NCBI RefSeq assembly: GCF_013215345.1
Contig: NZ_JABSOV010000010.1
Coordinates: 1,564-65,563, forward strand
DNA: 64,000 nucleotides
Reading direction: 5' to 3'
Source: Colwellia sp.
GTDB taxonomy: Bacteria > Pseudomonadota > Gammaproteobacteria > Enterobacterales > Alteromonadaceae
Shown: in pieces, positions 26,910 to 35,442 of the stretch
Numbering within the stretch: position 1 is the first letter of the stretch
How the letters are laid out: each line of letters opens with the position of its first letter
Notes under the pieces: generated by a model
What the model saw: only the letters and a program-made list of their open reading frames with translations
Told to the model about the DNA's origin: nothing
Database searches by the model: none
Translations under genes and position numbers: made by a program

Positions 26910-27120
26910 TAGCAGATAATGACCTTCTAATTAGCTGGGGTAAGTTCTAATATTATTATCTCTCAACAAAGCAACTACTCTAATTATTAGCCAGTTGAAC
27001 AAGTTGACCAACTGGTCTATTATTTAGAGTAGTTGGTCAATATCTTTAATCACCCCGCTTGATTAAAGGCAAGTTTAGCCCCATATTTAACTTATAGATA
27101 AAATATTAGGAGGTTTGTAG

Positions 27121-27237
27121 ATGAAGTTAAAAAAGAAAAAAATGATGGTTCGAAAAAACAAAAACAATTTAAAAGTTAAGGCATTACGCTCTCTTAAACG
27201 ACGTAATATCGCTCACTTCTATAAATTAGACGATTAA
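27121..27237 (+). CDS. Small highly basic protein, 38 aa (MKLKKKKMMVRKNKNNLKVKALRSLKRRNIAHFYKLDD)
   Basis: Perfect AGGAGG at 27108-27113, 7 nt before the ATG; below the ORF-track length cutoff. Confidence 0.6.
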   Translation: MKLKKKKMMVRKNKNNLKVKALRSLKRRNIAHFYKLDD

Positions 27238-27628
27238 GTCACTCGTTAATTCGCAGATTCAGTGCAAGTAAATTAAGCACCCTTACCAGTTTTGCTGTCA
27301 ATGACCTTATAAAATCGGTTTATTGTCGCATCACTGAGCTTTCCCCCTTAATAAAACCGCTCACTATTAGATACTTTTTGGTTACTCATCCCTACCTTTG
27401 TTAAATTTTATGATGTTAGCTGTAGATTAATTACACAAAGATAGTAAAACAAAAAGAATTATCTATAAACACCATCAAAATAGCAGACTTTACTGATAGT
27501 TTTATCATGAACATCTACAAAAATTTTATCTGTTTTACTTCTTTCAAATCCACATAAATACTAAACTTATTTTAATTTTTCTGAAGTACTTTCAGTCTAC
27601 CTCCATTTGTATCCTCATTTCTTAGCTC

Positions 27629-27706
27629 CTAGGCAGTGATAATTCTATGGCAAGTTTTTCTCTTCTTAAAATTGTATTCAACTTCGGCAAAGGTCAATAA
27701 GCTCAT
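27629..27706 (-). mobile_element. IS5-family transposase N-terminal remnant
   Basis: Translates MSLLTFAEVEYNFKKRKTCHRIITA*, matching the typical IS5 start (MS.QLTFA..EY..K+RKTR+E.FL); no further transposase sequence recognised. Confidence 0.6.
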
Positions 27707-27905
27707 GATTTACACCAAAACTAATAGGTATAACACCTTTTTATAAAGTCAACTATGCTACATAAGTGCCATACTAATTTAGTCAAGTATTAATACCAAC
27801 GGAGTATCAAATAATTTTGTCTACTACCTATTTTTTGAAAACTGCCAAGGGCTCAAAAGCAATGCAATTGTTCACAAGAACATAGGGTAAAAAGGGACTT
27901 CTCTC

Positions 27906-28174
27906 ATGAAATTTTTCGCCAACATTAAGTTATCAAACAAAATATACTTCCTGATCAGTCTTGTATTACTCTGTCAGTTATTTATAGTCGAGAAAGCTAT
28001 TACTTCGATGAATAAAATTAGTGATGAGTTAAGAGACATTACCGAGTTTGATATGCCTTTAACCGAAAAACACACCAAATAACCATTCATCAGTTAGAAC
28101 AAGCTATTTGGTTTGAACGGGCATTACGTTTTGGTGAAAGTGAAACATTTAAGACACACCAAAAGTATTTTTAA
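27906..28174 (+). pseudogene. Frameshifted, truncated N-terminal fragment of an MCP paralog
   Basis: MKFFANIKLSNKIYFLISLVLLCQLFIVEKAITSMNKISDELRDITEFDMPLTEKHTK* continues in the -1 frame as ITIHQLEQAIWFERALRFG, which parallels [27 protein letters not shown] in the next gene. Confidence 0.75.
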
Positions 28175-28249
28175 AATTCGAAGGATCAGATCAATTTTTA
28201 TGCCCATAAAGTTTATGAGGTAATTAATTAACAGCCTAAAAGGAAAGAT

Positions 28250-29929
28250 ATGAAAAAATTAACGCTCACACAAACCATTATGTTGATTGCCATTGTTATG
28301 TTTTCTTTGCAATTAATTTATGGTGCTATTAACAGTACTCGTGTTATGAAAATGGGCCATCATATTTCAACTATTGAAACCCAGTATATGCCAATCACTG
28401 AGCATATTACGTTGATCACAGAATACCAACTTGAACAAGAAATAGAATTTGAACGGGCTTTTCGATATGCCCTTGAAATGAAAGATAATGATGCTGCGAC
28501 TGACCATTTTATGCATGCAGTAAAAAAATTCAAATTACTTACGATAAAATTCAATAAAGAAATAAAATCAACAGAAAAAAGAATTTTATCTGCTGCTGAA
28601 AAGATGGAAAATAAGGAAAATAAGGAAAATAAAACCAAATTATTTACATTAGAGCATAACTTAGAAATCATTGAAAAACAGCATGAAAAATGGGACTTAC
28701 ATGTTGTAGAAGTACTAGATTTACTTAAGGTAAATCAATTTACTGTCGCTATTAAAAAAGCAACAAAGGTTGAAGAAGAAGCACTAATACTTGAAAAAAA
28801 TGTCACTCAGATTTTAAGTTCAATTGAACATCTTACCGAGGAAGTATTACATAATCTTAAACGGGAAGAGGAAAGCATTTTAAATATTGGCATCGTTTTA
28901 TTAATTATTTCTTTAGTCATAGCGGTTATTATCACTCGATGGGTAATTAATCAGCTTAATGCAGATTTGTCTGCACTAAAAGAAGAAATTTCTCGCATTT
29001 CAAAGGGGGATTTAGTGACTAAAGTATCCTCAAAACTAGGGACAGAATTTGGGCTAAATACGATGAGGCAACATTTAAATGAAACCTTATTGATTGTAGA
29101 AAACACTTCAAACGAAGTACTTGGAGCCAGTGATGAACTCGCAAAAGCTAGTGCCGAAGTCAATCAAAATTCAAAGTTGCAAGCCCAAGAGTTTGAGTTG
29201 ATTTCAACAGCAATGACACAGATGGAATCAACTTCATTAGAAGTGGCTCGTCATGCTGAAAGCACTCAGAATTTTACAAAAGAGGCAACGAGTACAACAT
29301 ATAAAACAAAAGAAAGCACAAATGATGCAATGACATCAATATTAAAACTAACAGAGAGTCTTAAGCAGAGTAGTGATAATATTTCTGAATTAGCAAAAAG
29401 CAGTGAAAATATAACTTCAGTACTAGGTGTGATTAAAGGAATTGCCGATCAAACAAACTTACTTGCATTAAATGCCGCTATTGAAGCAGCACGAGCAGGA
29501 GAGCAAGGAAGAGGTTTTGCCGTTGTCGCTGATGAAGTCAGAAATCTAGCTAAGCGTACACAAGACTCCACCGTTGAAATTGAAAGCATGATTGAATTAT
29601 TTTCTCAAGGGACTGCTAACGCGGTAAATTCAATGATGGATTGTTTGACCCATGGAAAAGCAAGTGATCTGGCAGCAAACGAGTCTAATAATAAACTTGA
29701 TGAAATTCAAACGGCGATTGAAGAAATCAATGATATGAATAGTCACATTGCTACTGCGGCTGAAGAGCAGTCTTGTACCTCCCAGGAAATATCAAAAAAT
29801 ACGGTTAAAGCTAGCCAGTTGACAAGTGATAATGCTACTTCAATTGCCCGAATATCAGCAGCATCAGAAGAGCTAGCGCAAATATCATTGGTATTACAAG
29901 AGAGTCTATCAGGTTTTTCTCTTAATTAG
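28250..29929 (+). CDS. Methyl-accepting chemotaxis protein
   Basis: Two TMs flanking a periplasmic helical sensor; [34 protein letters not shown]. Confidence 0.96.
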
Positions 29930-30249
29930 CGCATAAATGATACACCTGCTCATGAAGCTCTCGTTAATACATTTACTCATGCTGAATAGCGTTATGTAAA
30001 AGTCTGGAGGTAAATATTTAAAACTTGCCCAGCTCGCTGAATTTCTTGGTAGAGATGCAGATACACTTAGAAATAATTATTTAAGTCCTATGTTAAAACG
30101 CCAACAATTAGAATTAGCTTTACCAACAAAACCAAGCCATCCGAACAGGGTTATAAAGTTAAATAAAATTAGAAGCTGCACATTAGTTGCACAAATATTG
30201 TAAAGTTTGAACAACTGAGTATAAATACAATTAAAATAGCAGATTTTTC

Positions 30250-30286
30250 TTGTCAAGTCGGGCTTAAATACAATATACTCCACGCG
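30250..30286 (+). promoter_or_regulatory. Sigma70 stable-RNA promoter for tRNA-His
   Basis: TTGTCA-18 bp-TATACT followed by the GC-rich discriminator CCACGCG. Confidence 0.65.
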
Positions 30287-30318
30287 TCTCAGAAAGAGGC
30301 ACTTTAAGTCTGTTCAGT

Positions 30319-30395
30319 GGTGGCTATAGCTCAGTTGGTAGAGCCCCGGATTGTGATTCCGGTTGTCGAGGGTTCAAGTCCCTTTAGCCACCCCA
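30319..30395 (+). tRNA. hisR: tRNA-His (GUG), including G-1 and encoded CCA
   Basis: GGTGGCTATAGCTCAGTTGGTAGAGCCCCGGATTGTGATTCCGGTTGTCGAGGGTTCAAGTCCCTTTAGCCACCCCA, 77 nt. Confidence 0.98.
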
Positions 30396-30900
30396 TTCTT
30401 TTCTTCCTTTGTAAAACTTATACTCTAAACAATCACGAGTGATTCCATTTTCGATTTACCGTGAATTCAAGTCCCTTTAGACAGCCCATCTTTTACTATT
30501 CCCATAAAACATTTAGAACTAGAAAGAATCACCAATGATTCCGTTATTCACTTACCGTGGATTCAAGTTCCTTTAGCCACCCCATCTTTTCTTCCTGTTT
30601 TAAACTTATACTCTAGACAATCACGAGTGATTCCATTATCGCTTTACCGTGGATTGAAGTCTTATTAGCCACGCCATTTTTTATCTCTATTTCAAATATA
30701 TTCCTGCTTAATTAAATCACGGGTGATTCCACTATTACTCTGCCGTGGATTGAATTTCCTTTAGCTACGCCCATTCTTTTATTATTCTCGTAAAACATTT
30801 AGAACTCGAAAAAATCACCAATAATGCCATTATTCATTTCCGTAGATTCAAGCTCCTTTAACTAGCCAGCCTTTTATATTCTTTGAAAAGCTCTAAACAA
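30396..30900 (+). repeat. Degenerate tandem array (period 92-97 bp), each unit carrying a tRNA-His 3'-end copy
   Basis: TT(C/G)AA(G/T) anchors at 30373 (tRNA), 30466, 30562, 30654, 30750, 30847; recurrent AATCAC-NN-(G/A)TGATTCC...TTACCGTGGA. Confidence 0.92.
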
Positions 30901-31116
30901 TCCAGTATCTCAAATAGCATACTGATTTTCGTCTACTGTTAACTTAACTCAATTGTTCATACTCTAGTTCTAGGTACTGCCAATAACGAGCAATCTAACT
31001 CGCATTTTGCAAAATAAAAAGCACTCTTCCACACTGTAAGCTATATGCAAATCCATAGATTAAAAATATAGAGCAAATCACGATGTAGATCATAAAATTA
31101 AGCGCTGTTAGTTAAA

Positions 31117-31133
31117 CTGGAACGTCACTTGCA
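31117..31133 (+). promoter_or_regulatory. Putative sigma54 -24/-12 promoter upstream of the sensor kinase
   Basis: CTGGAACGTCACTTGCA, GG-N10-GC with good flanks. Confidence 0.55.
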
Positions 31134-31288
31134 TTATTTTTTGGCAATTACTGCCAATTCCCGTAGACACTCAAGTCGGCGGAGAAAATGAAGCCATAAA
31201 GAGGATTTTAGCTCGGTATGCAAGTGCATAAAACAGCAGTTGAGTAATCTGCATGGGTAGTATTATCAGTCTTGTTCGAGGTATTACT

Positions 31289-33067
<1,779 letters not shown>

Positions 33068-33174
33068 CACTACTTCGCCAGTTATACTGGCATATACGGC
33101 TAAAAAAACCAATGTTACTTGGCTTCATTTGCATTGATATGACTGAAAGTATTCTGTGGTCTCAGCTAGTGTTT

Positions 33175-33226
33175 GATTGATTCCTTTGCTTCGTTTCTTT
33201 GGGTTTAAGCCCCTTTAGTCACGCCA
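33175..33226 (+). repeat. Distal copy of the tRNA-His 3'-end repeat unit (attR-like)
   Basis: 33201-33226 is 22/26 identical to 30370-30395 and is preceded by TTGATTCC at the same spacing as in the array. Confidence 0.8.
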
Positions 33227-33287
33227 ACCTTTTAAGTTTATTCCCCCCTAAAATTCTTAGTTGAAATACACTAGCTTAAAATCAAAC

Positions 33288-34196
33288 TCAGCTTGTTTGA
33301 TTATATCGAGCAATATTATTACGAACAAAATCAATGAAGGCTTTTAATCGTGCCGGCTGATATTTATCTTGTACATAAACCAGATAAAAAGGTGACTTGG
33401 CTACAGCCCAGTCGGTAAAAACGGAGGTGAGTGTGCCATTGGCGATTTCTTGCTGACAATATAAGTAAGGCAAACGTACTATGCCGTTACCCGCTAGCGC
33501 GCTGTTTATCATGGCACGACCATTTTTGCATTTGAACGATCCATCGACGCTAACATCAATATTTTTACTAGCTGTTTTAACATTGATAAAGGACCAGTTA
33601 TTTAATGAGCCGGTAATACACTGATGCTGCTTTAGCTCTTTTGGATGTGATAATTGACCATTCTTTTGTAAATAGCCAGGACTCGCTAAAGTACAGATTG
33701 AGATATCCATTAACTTTTGGGCAATCAAGTTTGAATCTTCTAACTGCCCCATACGAAAGACAATATCAAACTCACCAGCAATCAAGTCTACACGTCGACT
33801 ACTAAAATCAAGATTAACCTTAACGTCTGGGTATTGCTGAATAAAATCACTCACTAAAGGGGCAATTATATCTTCGCCGATATAACCGCCCACACAGTTA
33901 ATGTTTATGAAGCCTTTCACAGTACCTGCATCATTTATCGCTTGCTCAATAGCATAATCAACCCCATCAAACGAGCGGCTGCATTGTTCAAAGAAAAGCT
34001 TTCCCTGTTCTGTCAAACACTGTGTACGCGTGGTACGTATGATCAGCTTCACCGCAAGCGCAGATTCTAGTTGCGATAATTGCTTAGACAAATGTGAGCG
34101 TGAACATAAAATCTGCTCAGCCGCGGCAGTGAAGCTGCCTGCTTTAACAATTAAGACAAAAGCACGGATATCAGCAATATTTATATCGTCATTCAT
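33288..34196 (-). CDS. LysR-family transcriptional regulator
   Basis: N-terminal HTH (GSFTAAAE...SHLSKQLSQLE), divergent from the SDR gene. Confidence 0.92.
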   Translation of the reverse strand: MNDDINIADIRAFVLIVKAGSFTAAAEQILCSRSHLSKQLSQLESALAVKLIIRTTRTQCLTEQGKLFFEQCSRSFDGVDYAIEQAINDAGTVKGFININCVGGYIGEDIIAPLVSDFIQQYPDVKVNLDFSSRRVDLIAGEFDIVFRMGQLEDSNLIAQKLMDISICTLASPGYLQKNGQLSHPKELKQHQCITGSLNNWSFINVKTASKNIDVSVDGSFKCKNGRAMINSALAGNGIVRLPYLYCQQEIANGTLTSVFTDWAVAKSPFYLVYVQDKYQPARLKAFIDFVRNNIARYNQTS

Positions 34197-34370
34197 AACA
34201 GCTCAAATTCAGTTGATTGGTCATAGCACTATATTATCAAAACCATTATTAGATCGCATCTGTAAACAATGATGTAACTAATACACCATATATCAACAAT
34301 TTCTTATTGCATAGAATAGCTGTATCACAAATAAGTAGTATTTAAGATTAACCAAATAAGTAGAGACATT

Positions 34371-35090
34371 ATGAAAAAATTAGTTGTTATCACTGGTGCA
34401 AGTTCAGGTATCGGCCAAGCAGTTGCCAAACATTTTAGCGATCAGGAACACCCATTATTATTGATTGCCCGTCGGGTAGAGAACTTAGTAGCACTGGAGT
34501 TACCAAATACATTATGTGAACAAGTTGATGTAACCAATAAAGTCACATTTGATGCTGCTGTAGCAAAAGCAGAAGCACTTTATGGTCCAACAGATTGCCT
34601 GATAAATAATGCTGGCGTTATGTTATTAGGACAAGTTGATAGTCAGGATGCCAATGAATGGAAAAACATGTTTGATGTCAATGTCATCGGTTTATTAAAT
34701 GGTATGCAGACTGTTTTATCACCGATGAAAGCGCGTAACACTGGCACAATTATTAATATCAGCTCTATTGCTGGCAGAAAAACCTTCGCTAACCATGCCG
34801 CATACACAGGCACTAAATTTGCTGTACATGCCATTTCAGAAAATGTTCGCGAAGAAGTCGCTGATAGCAATGTCCGTGTTATTACCATCGCCCCTGGCGC
34901 AGTAGAAACCGAGTTGTTGTCACATACAACCAGTGATGAAATCAAGGACGGTTATCAATCATGGAAAGAAAGCATGGGCGGCGCAATACAGCCTGAAGAT
35001 ATCGCTAATACGATCATGTTCGCCTACAGCCAACCACAAAATGTTTGTATTCGAGAAATAGTCATCGCAGCCACCAGACAGCAAGCTTAG
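34371..35090 (+). CDS. Short-chain dehydrogenase/reductase
   Basis: TGASSGIG, NNAG, YTGTK (YxxxK). Confidence 0.93.
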   Translation: MKKLVVITGASSGIGQAVAKHFSDQEHPLLLIARRVENLVALELPNTLCEQVDVTNKVTFDAAVAKAEALYGPTDCLINNAGVMLLGQVDSQDANEWKNMFDVNVIGLLNGMQTVLSPMKARNTGTIINISSIAGRKTFANHAAYTGTKFAVHAISENVREEVADSNVRVITIAPGAVETELLSHTTSDEIKDGYQSWKESMGGAIQPEDIANTIMFAYSQPQNVCIREIVIAATRQQA

Positions 35091-35134
35091 AAATACCTGA
35101 TTGCCATCAACAGATGATTGTTGAACTTAAAATA

Positions 35135-35163
35135 AGAGTGGTTAAATTCTATTTAGCCACTCT
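35135..35163. terminator. Hairpin/terminator after the SDR gene
   Basis: AGAGTGG...CCACTCT inverted repeat. Confidence 0.55.
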
Positions 35164-35442
35164 GATATTTATAGCCTACTGGCCATAACCTCTTATTAAT
35201 GCAACTAAGCACTCGGTAACATTCTAAATTATTTCAATCCCTCAAGGGCTTTATTGATTCCTTTTAGATAAGCTATTATCATCGGGAGTTATTGGACAAG
35301 AGCTTTTCATATCCTTATGACTAATGAAAAATAATAAAAACAAAAATAAGACTCGCCAATAACGTTACTGACTGGTTTTGCCAGGCTTAGCAATAACAAC
35401 ACTAACAAAAATAATTTTAGTTATTTAAAAAAGGAATATAAT

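Follow-up and report, generated by a model that had tools for sequence, protein, structure and literature searches.

The window analysed here, a stretch of 64,000 nt, is part of a draft Colwellia genome (G000, an assembly of 4.24 Mb; contig C2, 83 kb) and contains an intact tRNA-His(GTG) gene that is followed by a tandem array of repeats resembling the 3' half of the tRNA itself. This is the sole tRNA called at the locus by ARAGORN and Rfam, and the stretch upstream of it is approximately 85% conserved among ten genomes of the same genus. The array consists of five head-to-tail units of 92–98 bp (30396–30871) and a truncated sixth (30872–30903), the spacers of which are of several types in the order A-B-A-C-B-D, D being the spacer of the truncated unit. 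The features are as follows, with bit scores for the units taken from R1, a model built from 16 units.

30250–30279, + strand: sigma-70-like promoter of tRNA-His, TTGTCA-18-TATACT (10/12 matches; distance to the tRNA about 40 nt)
30320–30395, + strand: tRNA-His(GTG), intact, CCA included, with G-1 encoded at 30319 (ARAGORN; Rfam tRNA model, 67.9 bits)
30396–30488, + strand: unit 1, spacer type A (R1, 65.0 bits; T-stem broken, GTGAA vs CCCTT)
30489–30584, + strand: unit 2, spacer type B, the best preserved (R1, 75.5 bits; 3' end identical to the tRNA at 22/23 bases)
30585–30676, + strand: unit 3, spacer type A', 84% identical to unit 1 (R1, 64.3 bits)
30677–30773, + strand: unit 4, spacer type C (R1, 64.2 bits)
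30774–30871, + strand: unit 5, spacer type B', 81% identical to unit 2 (R1, 29.8 bits)
30872–30903, + strand: truncated unit 6 (left part only), with a type D spacer followed by the collapsed palindrome/core AATCC (read from the sequence)

A sequence-only reading of this DNA had described five units of 92–97 bp, each with a conserved block and a variable segment, and its descriptive claims about the array all hold. The periodicity is borne out by Tandem Repeats Finder, which over 30373–30860 reports a period of 96 bp (5.2 copies, score 365) and a higher-order period of 188 bp (2.2 copies, score 479), and the A-B-A-C-B-D order described there is reflected in the identities of unit 1 with unit 3 and of unit 2 with unit 5 given above. 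The spacers of the A pair are 86% identical and those of the B pair 85%, while in unit pairs of different type the spacers are 52–63% identical and the blocks 69–83%. Because the units are mutually diverged and lie inside an 83-kb contig, it is unlikely that the array is an artefact of assembly collapse. The palindrome AATCACNNGTGATT occurs four times in the 4.24-Mb assembly, against 0.46 expected, and three of these occurrences are within the array; a role as a regulon operator was rejected, given that only a single chance site is present elsewhere in the assembly.

Each unit is made up of a T-rich/AT-rich spacer of 34–39 nt, the motif AATCAC-NN-(G/A)TGATTCC, a 19-nt linker and a TTCAAGTCCCTTTAGCCACCCCA-like end, such that the 3' end of the unit copies the T-loop, acceptor strand and CCA of the tRNA. 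Alignment to a covariance model places the units colinear with tRNA positions 34–76, from the anticodon (GTGATTCC) to the CCA (43 nt), with a 10-column gap in the tRNA rows between the anticodon stem and the variable loop that corresponds to approximately 7–10 extra bases in the units. Apart from this insertion, which disables the tRNA fold, the copy is colinear with the tRNA. From GTGATTCC to TTCAAG the tRNA has 12 nt and the units have 19 nt, in agreement with the 12 versus 18–19 nt noted previously. The idea that the linker is a collapsed acceptor/D-arm, as in a permuted tRNA, was dropped after the model alignment gave plain colinearity plus an insertion. To the left of the tRNA-derived part there is a non-tRNA arm, the sequence of which is C(A/T)CGACCG(A/T)(A/C)ATCAC-NN in most relatives, and the unit palindrome AATCAC-NN-GTGATTCC arises because the last six bases of this arm are the reverse complement of GTGATT. 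The spacers are as similar to the native tRNA-His trailers of relatives as to anything else, or more so, and their similarity to the fused ends of conserved gene blocks (z up to 4.5) is weak and does not exceed that to native trailers. Taken with the anatomy, this indicates that a unit is composed of the back half of the tRNA, its trailer and a short joint.

Preservation varies along the array. Unit 2 matches TTCAAGTCCCTTTAGCCACCCCA at 22 of 23 bases and units 1, 3 and 4 have two to seven mismatches, while unit 5 is worse and is the most decayed of all, its palindrome having been lost (AATCACCAATAATGCC). A T-stem cannot form in any of the five units of the window (0/5); these units are not tRNAs, they look decayed, and they are probably just co-transcribed trailer.

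The units are not peculiar to this genome. The exact pattern AATCA-N4-TGATTCC-N12-30-TTNAANTNCC was found in four of 55 genomes of the genus, and one carrier of the element within the genus is Colwellia asteriadis JCM 15608. In a scan of prokaryotes at one genome per species, among the matches listed the tRNA-like end was present only in Colwellia, Cognaticolwellia, Colwelliaceae and Thalassotalea, the other listed matches being chance ones in the expected number. Model R1, which gives the tRNA itself about 39 bits over 57 nt and true units 42–80 bits over approximately 70 nt, identified units in 18 of 151 sampled genomes of the family, distributed among 12 genera. At all loci inspected the units lie downstream of tRNA-His, on the same strand and in one to five copies. 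The host gene is mostly a solo tRNA-His, and in two species the units are situated inside a Pro-Arg-His-[unit]-Pro tRNA operon upstream of tig. The flanking genes are ordinary, those upstream being partly conserved and those downstream different in each genome. On these comparisons the units are a family that has not been described before, found here only after tRNA-His and in at least 12 genera of the Colwellia/Thalassotalea family. We note separately that units with an intact T-arm are found between tRNA-His and tRNA-Pro of the Pro-Arg-His-Pro operon at locus L043 (G008:C186), where some of the array reads as N, and at L042/L051 (G057, Colwellia sp. NORP201).

Between genera the spacers cannot be aligned, whereas the left arm, core and insert can (alignments A1 and A3), and a single origin of the module is suggested by the derived characters that all members share. 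The T-arm/acceptor copy shows the same substitutions as the resident tRNA-His, examples being CCCAT, CATCAGCC and ATATGCC, and many units in relatives have at most one change with respect to the last 23 bases of the tRNA; since the unit ends match each local tRNA, gene conversion or unequal crossing-over would appear to be continuing.

An origin from a mobile element was rejected, as BLAST searches of phages and plasmids gave matches to the 3' end of tRNA-His only, and the viral contigs and the metagenome scan gave 16 and two chance matches respectively, with no copy of a unit in any of these collections. The same phage, plasmid and viral-contig searches bear on the proposal that the array is what remains, devoid of genes, of a homing element nesting in tRNA genes and comprising a small nuclease cassette and a disabled tRNA copy immune to cutting. 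Such an element might leave behind tandem copies of a tRNA fragment, disabled and carrying both an insert and a hairpin, next to the intact gene, although no open reading frame (ORF) was present within or beside the arrays at the eight large loci inspected, and GIY-YIG matches in the genome are confined to contigs C211 and C157, with none on C2. We regard this origin as very improbable.

Closer examination of the DNA to the right of the array shows that unit 6 is split by a block carrying a kinase gene and that further remnants lie beyond it:

30904–33172, + strand: islet 1, 2.3 kb, containing only a sensor histidine kinase (ORF 31253–33067; Pfam HATPase_c, Tll0287-like)
33173–33226, + strand: displaced right part of a unit, comprising TTGATTGATTCC, a 17-nt unit-type linker and GGTTTAAGCCCCTTTAGTCACGCCA, a T-arm/acceptor/CCA copy (R1, 29.6 bits, E = 1.2e-5)
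33227–35249, no single strand: islet 2, a LysR regulator (33288–34196, −) and a short-chain dehydrogenase (SDR; 34371–35090, +) (Pfam)
35250–35273, + strand: last core remnant, TTTATTGATTCC, then linker-like TTTTAGATAAGC; sequence shared with G059 resumes here

The cut in unit 6 is at 30903|30904 (AATCC|AGTAT), and the same junction is present in the close relative G059 and nearly the same in G055, both of which carry kinase orthologues that are 94% identical and in the same setting. Islet 1 has no recombinase gene. The LysR/SDR block has TTGATTCC cores on both sides, and G059 is without it, having 85 nt instead. Just past the dehydrogenase gene, at 35113–35164, there is also a weak tRNA-His-like end (GATGATTG...GAGTGGTTAAATTCTATTTAGCCACTC) with no R1 match, which may be a remnant or a chance resemblance.

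Blocks of this kind are not restricted to the window. Many Colwellia genomes have blocks of 2.8–11.5 kb downstream of tRNA-His, with a conserved right end (...CCTATACCGACAACGTGATT) that is joined to a displaced tRNA fragment starting at ATTGTGATTCC; these fragments thus begin at A31, three bases upstream of G34 (GTGATTCC), at which the tRNA identity of the units starts. Blocks at L003, L004, L012, L022–L033, L257 and L258 share their ends, TTCTTCCCCTTTAGATTCAAAGCCTCTGGGCA... on the left and ...CTAGCTTGATACACGTTAATCCAAGTAAATCCTATACCGACAACGTGATT on the right. The cargo, where examined, includes AcrB/HlyD and MacB-type efflux pumps and regulators, with a kinase in the window, and the block ORFs of Colwellia sp. 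DT_19 and ALOHA_DT_126 are likewise pumps and regulators. No match to PF00589 (tyrosine recombinase) or PF00239 (serine recombinase) was found on the contig of the window or at the tRNA-His loci of G001, G003, G004 and G015, and no tRNA-His-specific integrase of the kind that the sequence-only reading had envisaged was found at these loci. Elsewhere in the genome there are non-Xer tyrosine recombinase genes, at C69:2758–3243 and C224:19184–19597.

Junctions at the same position are seen in other genomes. In C. asteriadis unit 2 ends AATCACGCATGATTCC|AGTAT (GATTCC|AGTAT), with unrelated DNA beyond; a common origin of this junction and that in the window was rejected, and the two are independent, because the downstream DNA is not homologous. 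Colwellia sp. DT_19 has two hybrids in which the right end of a block is followed by GTGATTC and a unit-type linker, beside a regular unit. In Colwellia sp. ALOHA_DT_126 the left end of a block stands directly after a unit, and a module comprising a displaced tRNA half, a spacer and a unit is present at the ends of two successive blocks. Both of these metagenome-assembled genomes (MAGs) also contain a solo tRNA-His with its promoter that is broken after GTGATTCCG (L201, G071:C88:52460–52501, and L209, G072:C164:23857–23898), the DNA after the break not restoring the tRNA. Recombinase-less blocks thus join at the (G)TGATTCC core, and the recurrence of these junctions in the window, C. asteriadis, DT_19 and ALOHA_DT_126 and at the broken tRNA-His genes indicates that the copied anticodon core is a recurrent point of breakage and joining.

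The array itself changes rapidly among close relatives. The comparison of unit number across strains that had been proposed gives five full units in the window genome, two in G055 and one in G059: G055 has tRNA-His followed by an A-type and a B-type unit and a partial D unit, and in G059 a displaced half of the tRNA is followed by a single 'classical'-subtype unit and a partial D unit. The kinase block and its left junction are common to all three genomes, and it is the array that differs. Homology between the window genome and G055 starts only 6 nt upstream of the tRNA, so that the tRNA serves as well as a pivot at which the upstream context changes. Further to the left, 3.4 kb of the window (26910–30200), including a gene for a methyl-accepting chemotaxis protein (MCP) chemoreceptor (28250–29929), separates an AcrB-family gene from tRNA-His, while in G017 and C. 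asteriadis the AcrB-family gene is only about 300–460 bp from tRNA-His; the upstream side of tRNA-His is therefore also variable.

These differences in copy number, together with spacers that are related copies of trailer, uphold the earlier view that the units multiplied by duplication rather than by CRISPR-like acquisition. A CRISPR array is excluded, the blocks of different types being only 69–83% identical and the spacers being related to one another and to tRNA trailers; cas genes were not searched for. The rapid change in copy number is equally what would be expected if slipped or unequal recombination had simply duplicated the tRNA 3' half and its trailer, the product having neither function nor any special part in recombination. 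The A-B-A-C-B-D order, the decay of the units in this genome, the resemblance of the spacers to native tRNA-His trailers and the presence of comparable pseudo-3'-half repeats after tRNA-Ser(TGA) in the same genome all fit such neutral duplication, which would make the units an ordinary by-product of a recombination hot spot. It does not readily explain why a module with a shared left arm, palindrome and insert has been kept in at least 12 genera while the spacers have diverged past alignment, features that independent scars would not share, nor why junctions recur at the core, and we consider it quite unlikely.

Read-through transcription of the array from the tRNA-His promoter is likely, since that promoter is a good one and no intrinsic terminator is predicted ahead of the kinase gene, 29900–31400 containing no terminator-like site. 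This raises the question of whether the units serve as RNA, the array being a long 3' trailer of tRNA-His that would be cut at CCA/U-rich boundaries into pieces of about 95 nt, which might act as small RNAs, sponges or processing signals in the manner of the rRNA-linked repeats of Escherichia coli. There is precedent in RrA, RrB and RrF, which are processed and bind Hfq and CsrA (PMC8144298). Besides the strong promoter and the lack of a predicted intrinsic terminator ahead of the array, this proposal draws on the units of two species that, lying inside a tRNA operon, are necessarily transcribed, on the conservation of the non-tRNA parts across genera, and on the complementarity, read from the sequence, of AAUCAC to the anticodon loop GUGAUU of tRNA-His.

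RNAalifold, applied to 16 and to 33 units, gives no consensus fold beyond a 3–5-bp hairpin that is without compensatory change, so that the mini-hairpin highlighted in the sequence-only reading finds no covariation support as an RNA structure. Folding z-scores of single units range from −0.2 to −3.0 and are mostly weak relative to shuffled sequences, only unit 1 of the window (−2.97) standing out. A further signal concerns the left-arm tetramer C-X-C-G, which has its complement in C-G-Y-G, formed by the base ahead of the T-stem and bases 1–3 of the T-stem 5' strand. X and Y vary in concert: Colwellia-type units have T:A, Thalassotalea-type units have A:T and one genome has G:C, and the T:A/A:T switch is also seen within a single genus (G123 vs G165). 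In columns 11/57 of alignment A3 there are 11 AU, six UA, two CG and one GC pairs, a covariation score reached by none of 500 shuffles, and 81.5% of cells are paired in the named structure as against 29–44% in slid controls. This pairing and the T-stem are mutually exclusive, the T-stem being about equally well supported. Because such counts are inflated by relatedness among the sequences, we read this covariation between the left arm and the T-stem 5' strand as suggesting, but not proving, that the strand folds, either as RNA or as single-stranded DNA. An RNA function also has to contend with the five broken T-stems and the lost hairpin of unit 5 in the window, and with an Rfam scan of 28000–33000 (E <= 5) that returned the tRNA and chance matches only and no RtT; moreover, it leaves the core position of the block junctions unexplained. 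On balance we think a functional RNA unlikely.

We favour the interpretation that the array consists of amplified attachment-site modules at a tRNA-His insertion hot spot, in decay in this genome, and would assign it a probability of roughly 0.55. The units copy the same part of the tRNA that inserted blocks duplicate in relatives, plus the trailer. According to this scheme the module would have a single origin and would have been retained after tRNA-His in many Colwellia/Thalassotalea-family genera, its arrays growing by unequal crossing-over, and gene conversion or unequal crossing-over would keep the tRNA end of each unit like the resident tRNA while shifting copy number quickly. Recombinase-less blocks would join at (G)TGATTCC to the tRNA, to units or to unit remnants, and the units, lying downstream of the functional tRNA, could therefore provide additional sites for docking or exchange, looking more like a stack of spare docking sites than like working tRNAs. 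The enzyme responsible may be a tyrosine integrase acting in trans, or the junctions may be produced by homologous exchange anchored on the repeated tRNA halves. The sequence-only reading had suggested stacked att sites or decoys; the first draws direct sequence support from the core junctions in the window, C. asteriadis and DT_19, and the second, which would be a protective role, does not.

Several observations sit uneasily with attachment-site modules. No recombinase is tied to the system, so that the designation would derive solely from the positions of the junctions. The two bases to the left of GTGAT are NN in the units as opposed to TT in the tRNA, a mismatch that should impair exchange by a tyrosine integrase of the classical type, which has a 7-bp overlap; a perfect palindrome of 14 bp is also atypical as a core site. 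The interpretation gives the conserved insert and left arm no role and requires no folded strand of the type to which the left-arm covariation points, and the obligatorily transcribed units of the Pro-Arg-His-Pro operon leave room for a role as RNA. Finally, the difference in G059 at the LysR/SDR block is not a clean empty site.

The most novel of the possible readings is that the units form an integron-like platform on tRNA-His, in which they would be docking sites for a recombinase supplied in trans and blocks would be swapped at the GTGATTCC core. A module of about 70 nt (left arm, anticodon-copy palindrome, insert and T-arm copy) would be recognised as a folded strand, with the left arm paired to the T-stem 5' strand, and the blocks exchanged would be pumps, kinases and regulators. 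In integron attC arrays and cis-mobilisable elements, short imperfect palindromes bound small blocks that have no recombinase of their own. The loci described here similarly have sites in rows and recombinase-less blocks that differ between strains. An attC site has R''/L''-L'/R' boxes and is recombined as a folded single strand; in the units a 5–6-bp palindrome and a co-varying outer pairing of 4–5 bp were all that was seen. The loci differ from integrons in that the sites are tRNA-derived, the blocks include multi-gene and reverse-oriented ones, and attachment activity is inferred here. Moreover, no IntI or attI adjoins the array, the upstream neighbours being the MCP gene and, beyond it, the AcrB-family gene, and there is no PF00589 match on the contig. 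We regard a platform of this type as distinctly unlikely.

The literature on tRNA-linked repeats (TLRs) includes work by Egan and Landy in 1978 and by Rudd in 1999, summarised by Stenum and colleagues in 2021 (PMC8144298). The array is a variant of these long-known repeats, well defined and real, and the comparison with E. coli drawn in the sequence-only reading is an apt one. In E. coli there are 22 TLR sequences at ten loci, one to five per locus, the 3' ends of which are 18–19 bp of the upstream tRNA or rRNA, and those linked to tRNA genes have been known since 1978 with no accepted function (PMC8144298). TLRs and the array are alike in being non-coding and placed directly downstream of a tRNA on the same strand, inside the transcription unit; here the array starts at 30396, the first base after the CCA. 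The 5.2 copies of the window and the one to five of relatives fall within the TLR range, and the 3' identity is comparable, with 22 of 23 bases in unit 2 and one change at most in 23 in many relatives' units. There is, however, no homology to TLRs, in that no RtT match was obtained with Rfam in 28000–33000, and in place of 18–19 bp the units share 43 nt with the tRNA, interrupted by approximately 7–10 extra bases. The anticodon-copy palindrome, conservation across at least 12 genera and coincidence with block junctions further set the array apart from the TLRs of E. coli.

Genomic islands provide the second point of reference. Many tyrosine integrases cross over in the anticodon loop, and the start of the repeat in that loop is shared with the attL/attR sites and tandem accretion of islands described for Islander (PMC4383910) and for Prochlorococcus tycheposons (bioRxiv 10.1101/2020.12.28.424599). 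As at island tRNAs and tycheposons, partial tRNA copies separate successive blocks, with older blocks and remnants further out, and as expected of att scars, where the repeat would start at the integrase crossover, the repeat is a tRNA 3' fragment, beginning at G34 in the units and at A31 in the fragments of relatives. In contrast to what is expected of such scars, no integrase was found at tRNA-His in the genomes inspected, and units 1–5 enclose just 34–39 nt, cargo being present only beyond unit 6. The units are best regarded as one propagated module and not as independent scars, because all share derived non-tRNA features.

The present analysis extends the sequence-only reading in three respects: the module is conserved and family-wide, unit 6 is split by the kinase block, and the extra bases are an insertion. 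The tRNA-His family is an unusually clear case, combining a single module conserved across genera with fast turnover and with junctions at the anticodon core. If the units are attachment or exchange sites, they would connect tRNA-linked repeats with the accumulation of flexible gene blocks at integrase-less tRNA loci in marine bacteria, and would provide concrete sequences for testing. Should they prove to be an integron-like platform, this would constitute an integron-like system built from a tRNA and a mechanism for at least one class of tRNA-linked repeats.

Two further loci of the same genome, both outside the window, contain tRNA-derived copies. At C191:23897–25900 a tRNA-Ser(TGA) gene has five or more units of about 120 bp behind it. 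The majority start with a pseudo 3' half, in which some 10 extra bases stand between the variable arm and the T-arm, acceptor and CCA, and continue with a trailer and a terminator hairpin; one unit is without the variable arm, a reverse-strand gene of 268 aa is located between units, and the architecture is as in the tRNA-His units. At C228:15900–16683 a pseudo-tRNA-Asn follows tandem tRNA-Asn genes, and its anticodon loop is replaced by approximately 19 nt (GGACTGT-ACTCTCTATAATAAATAGC-ATGTGTC).

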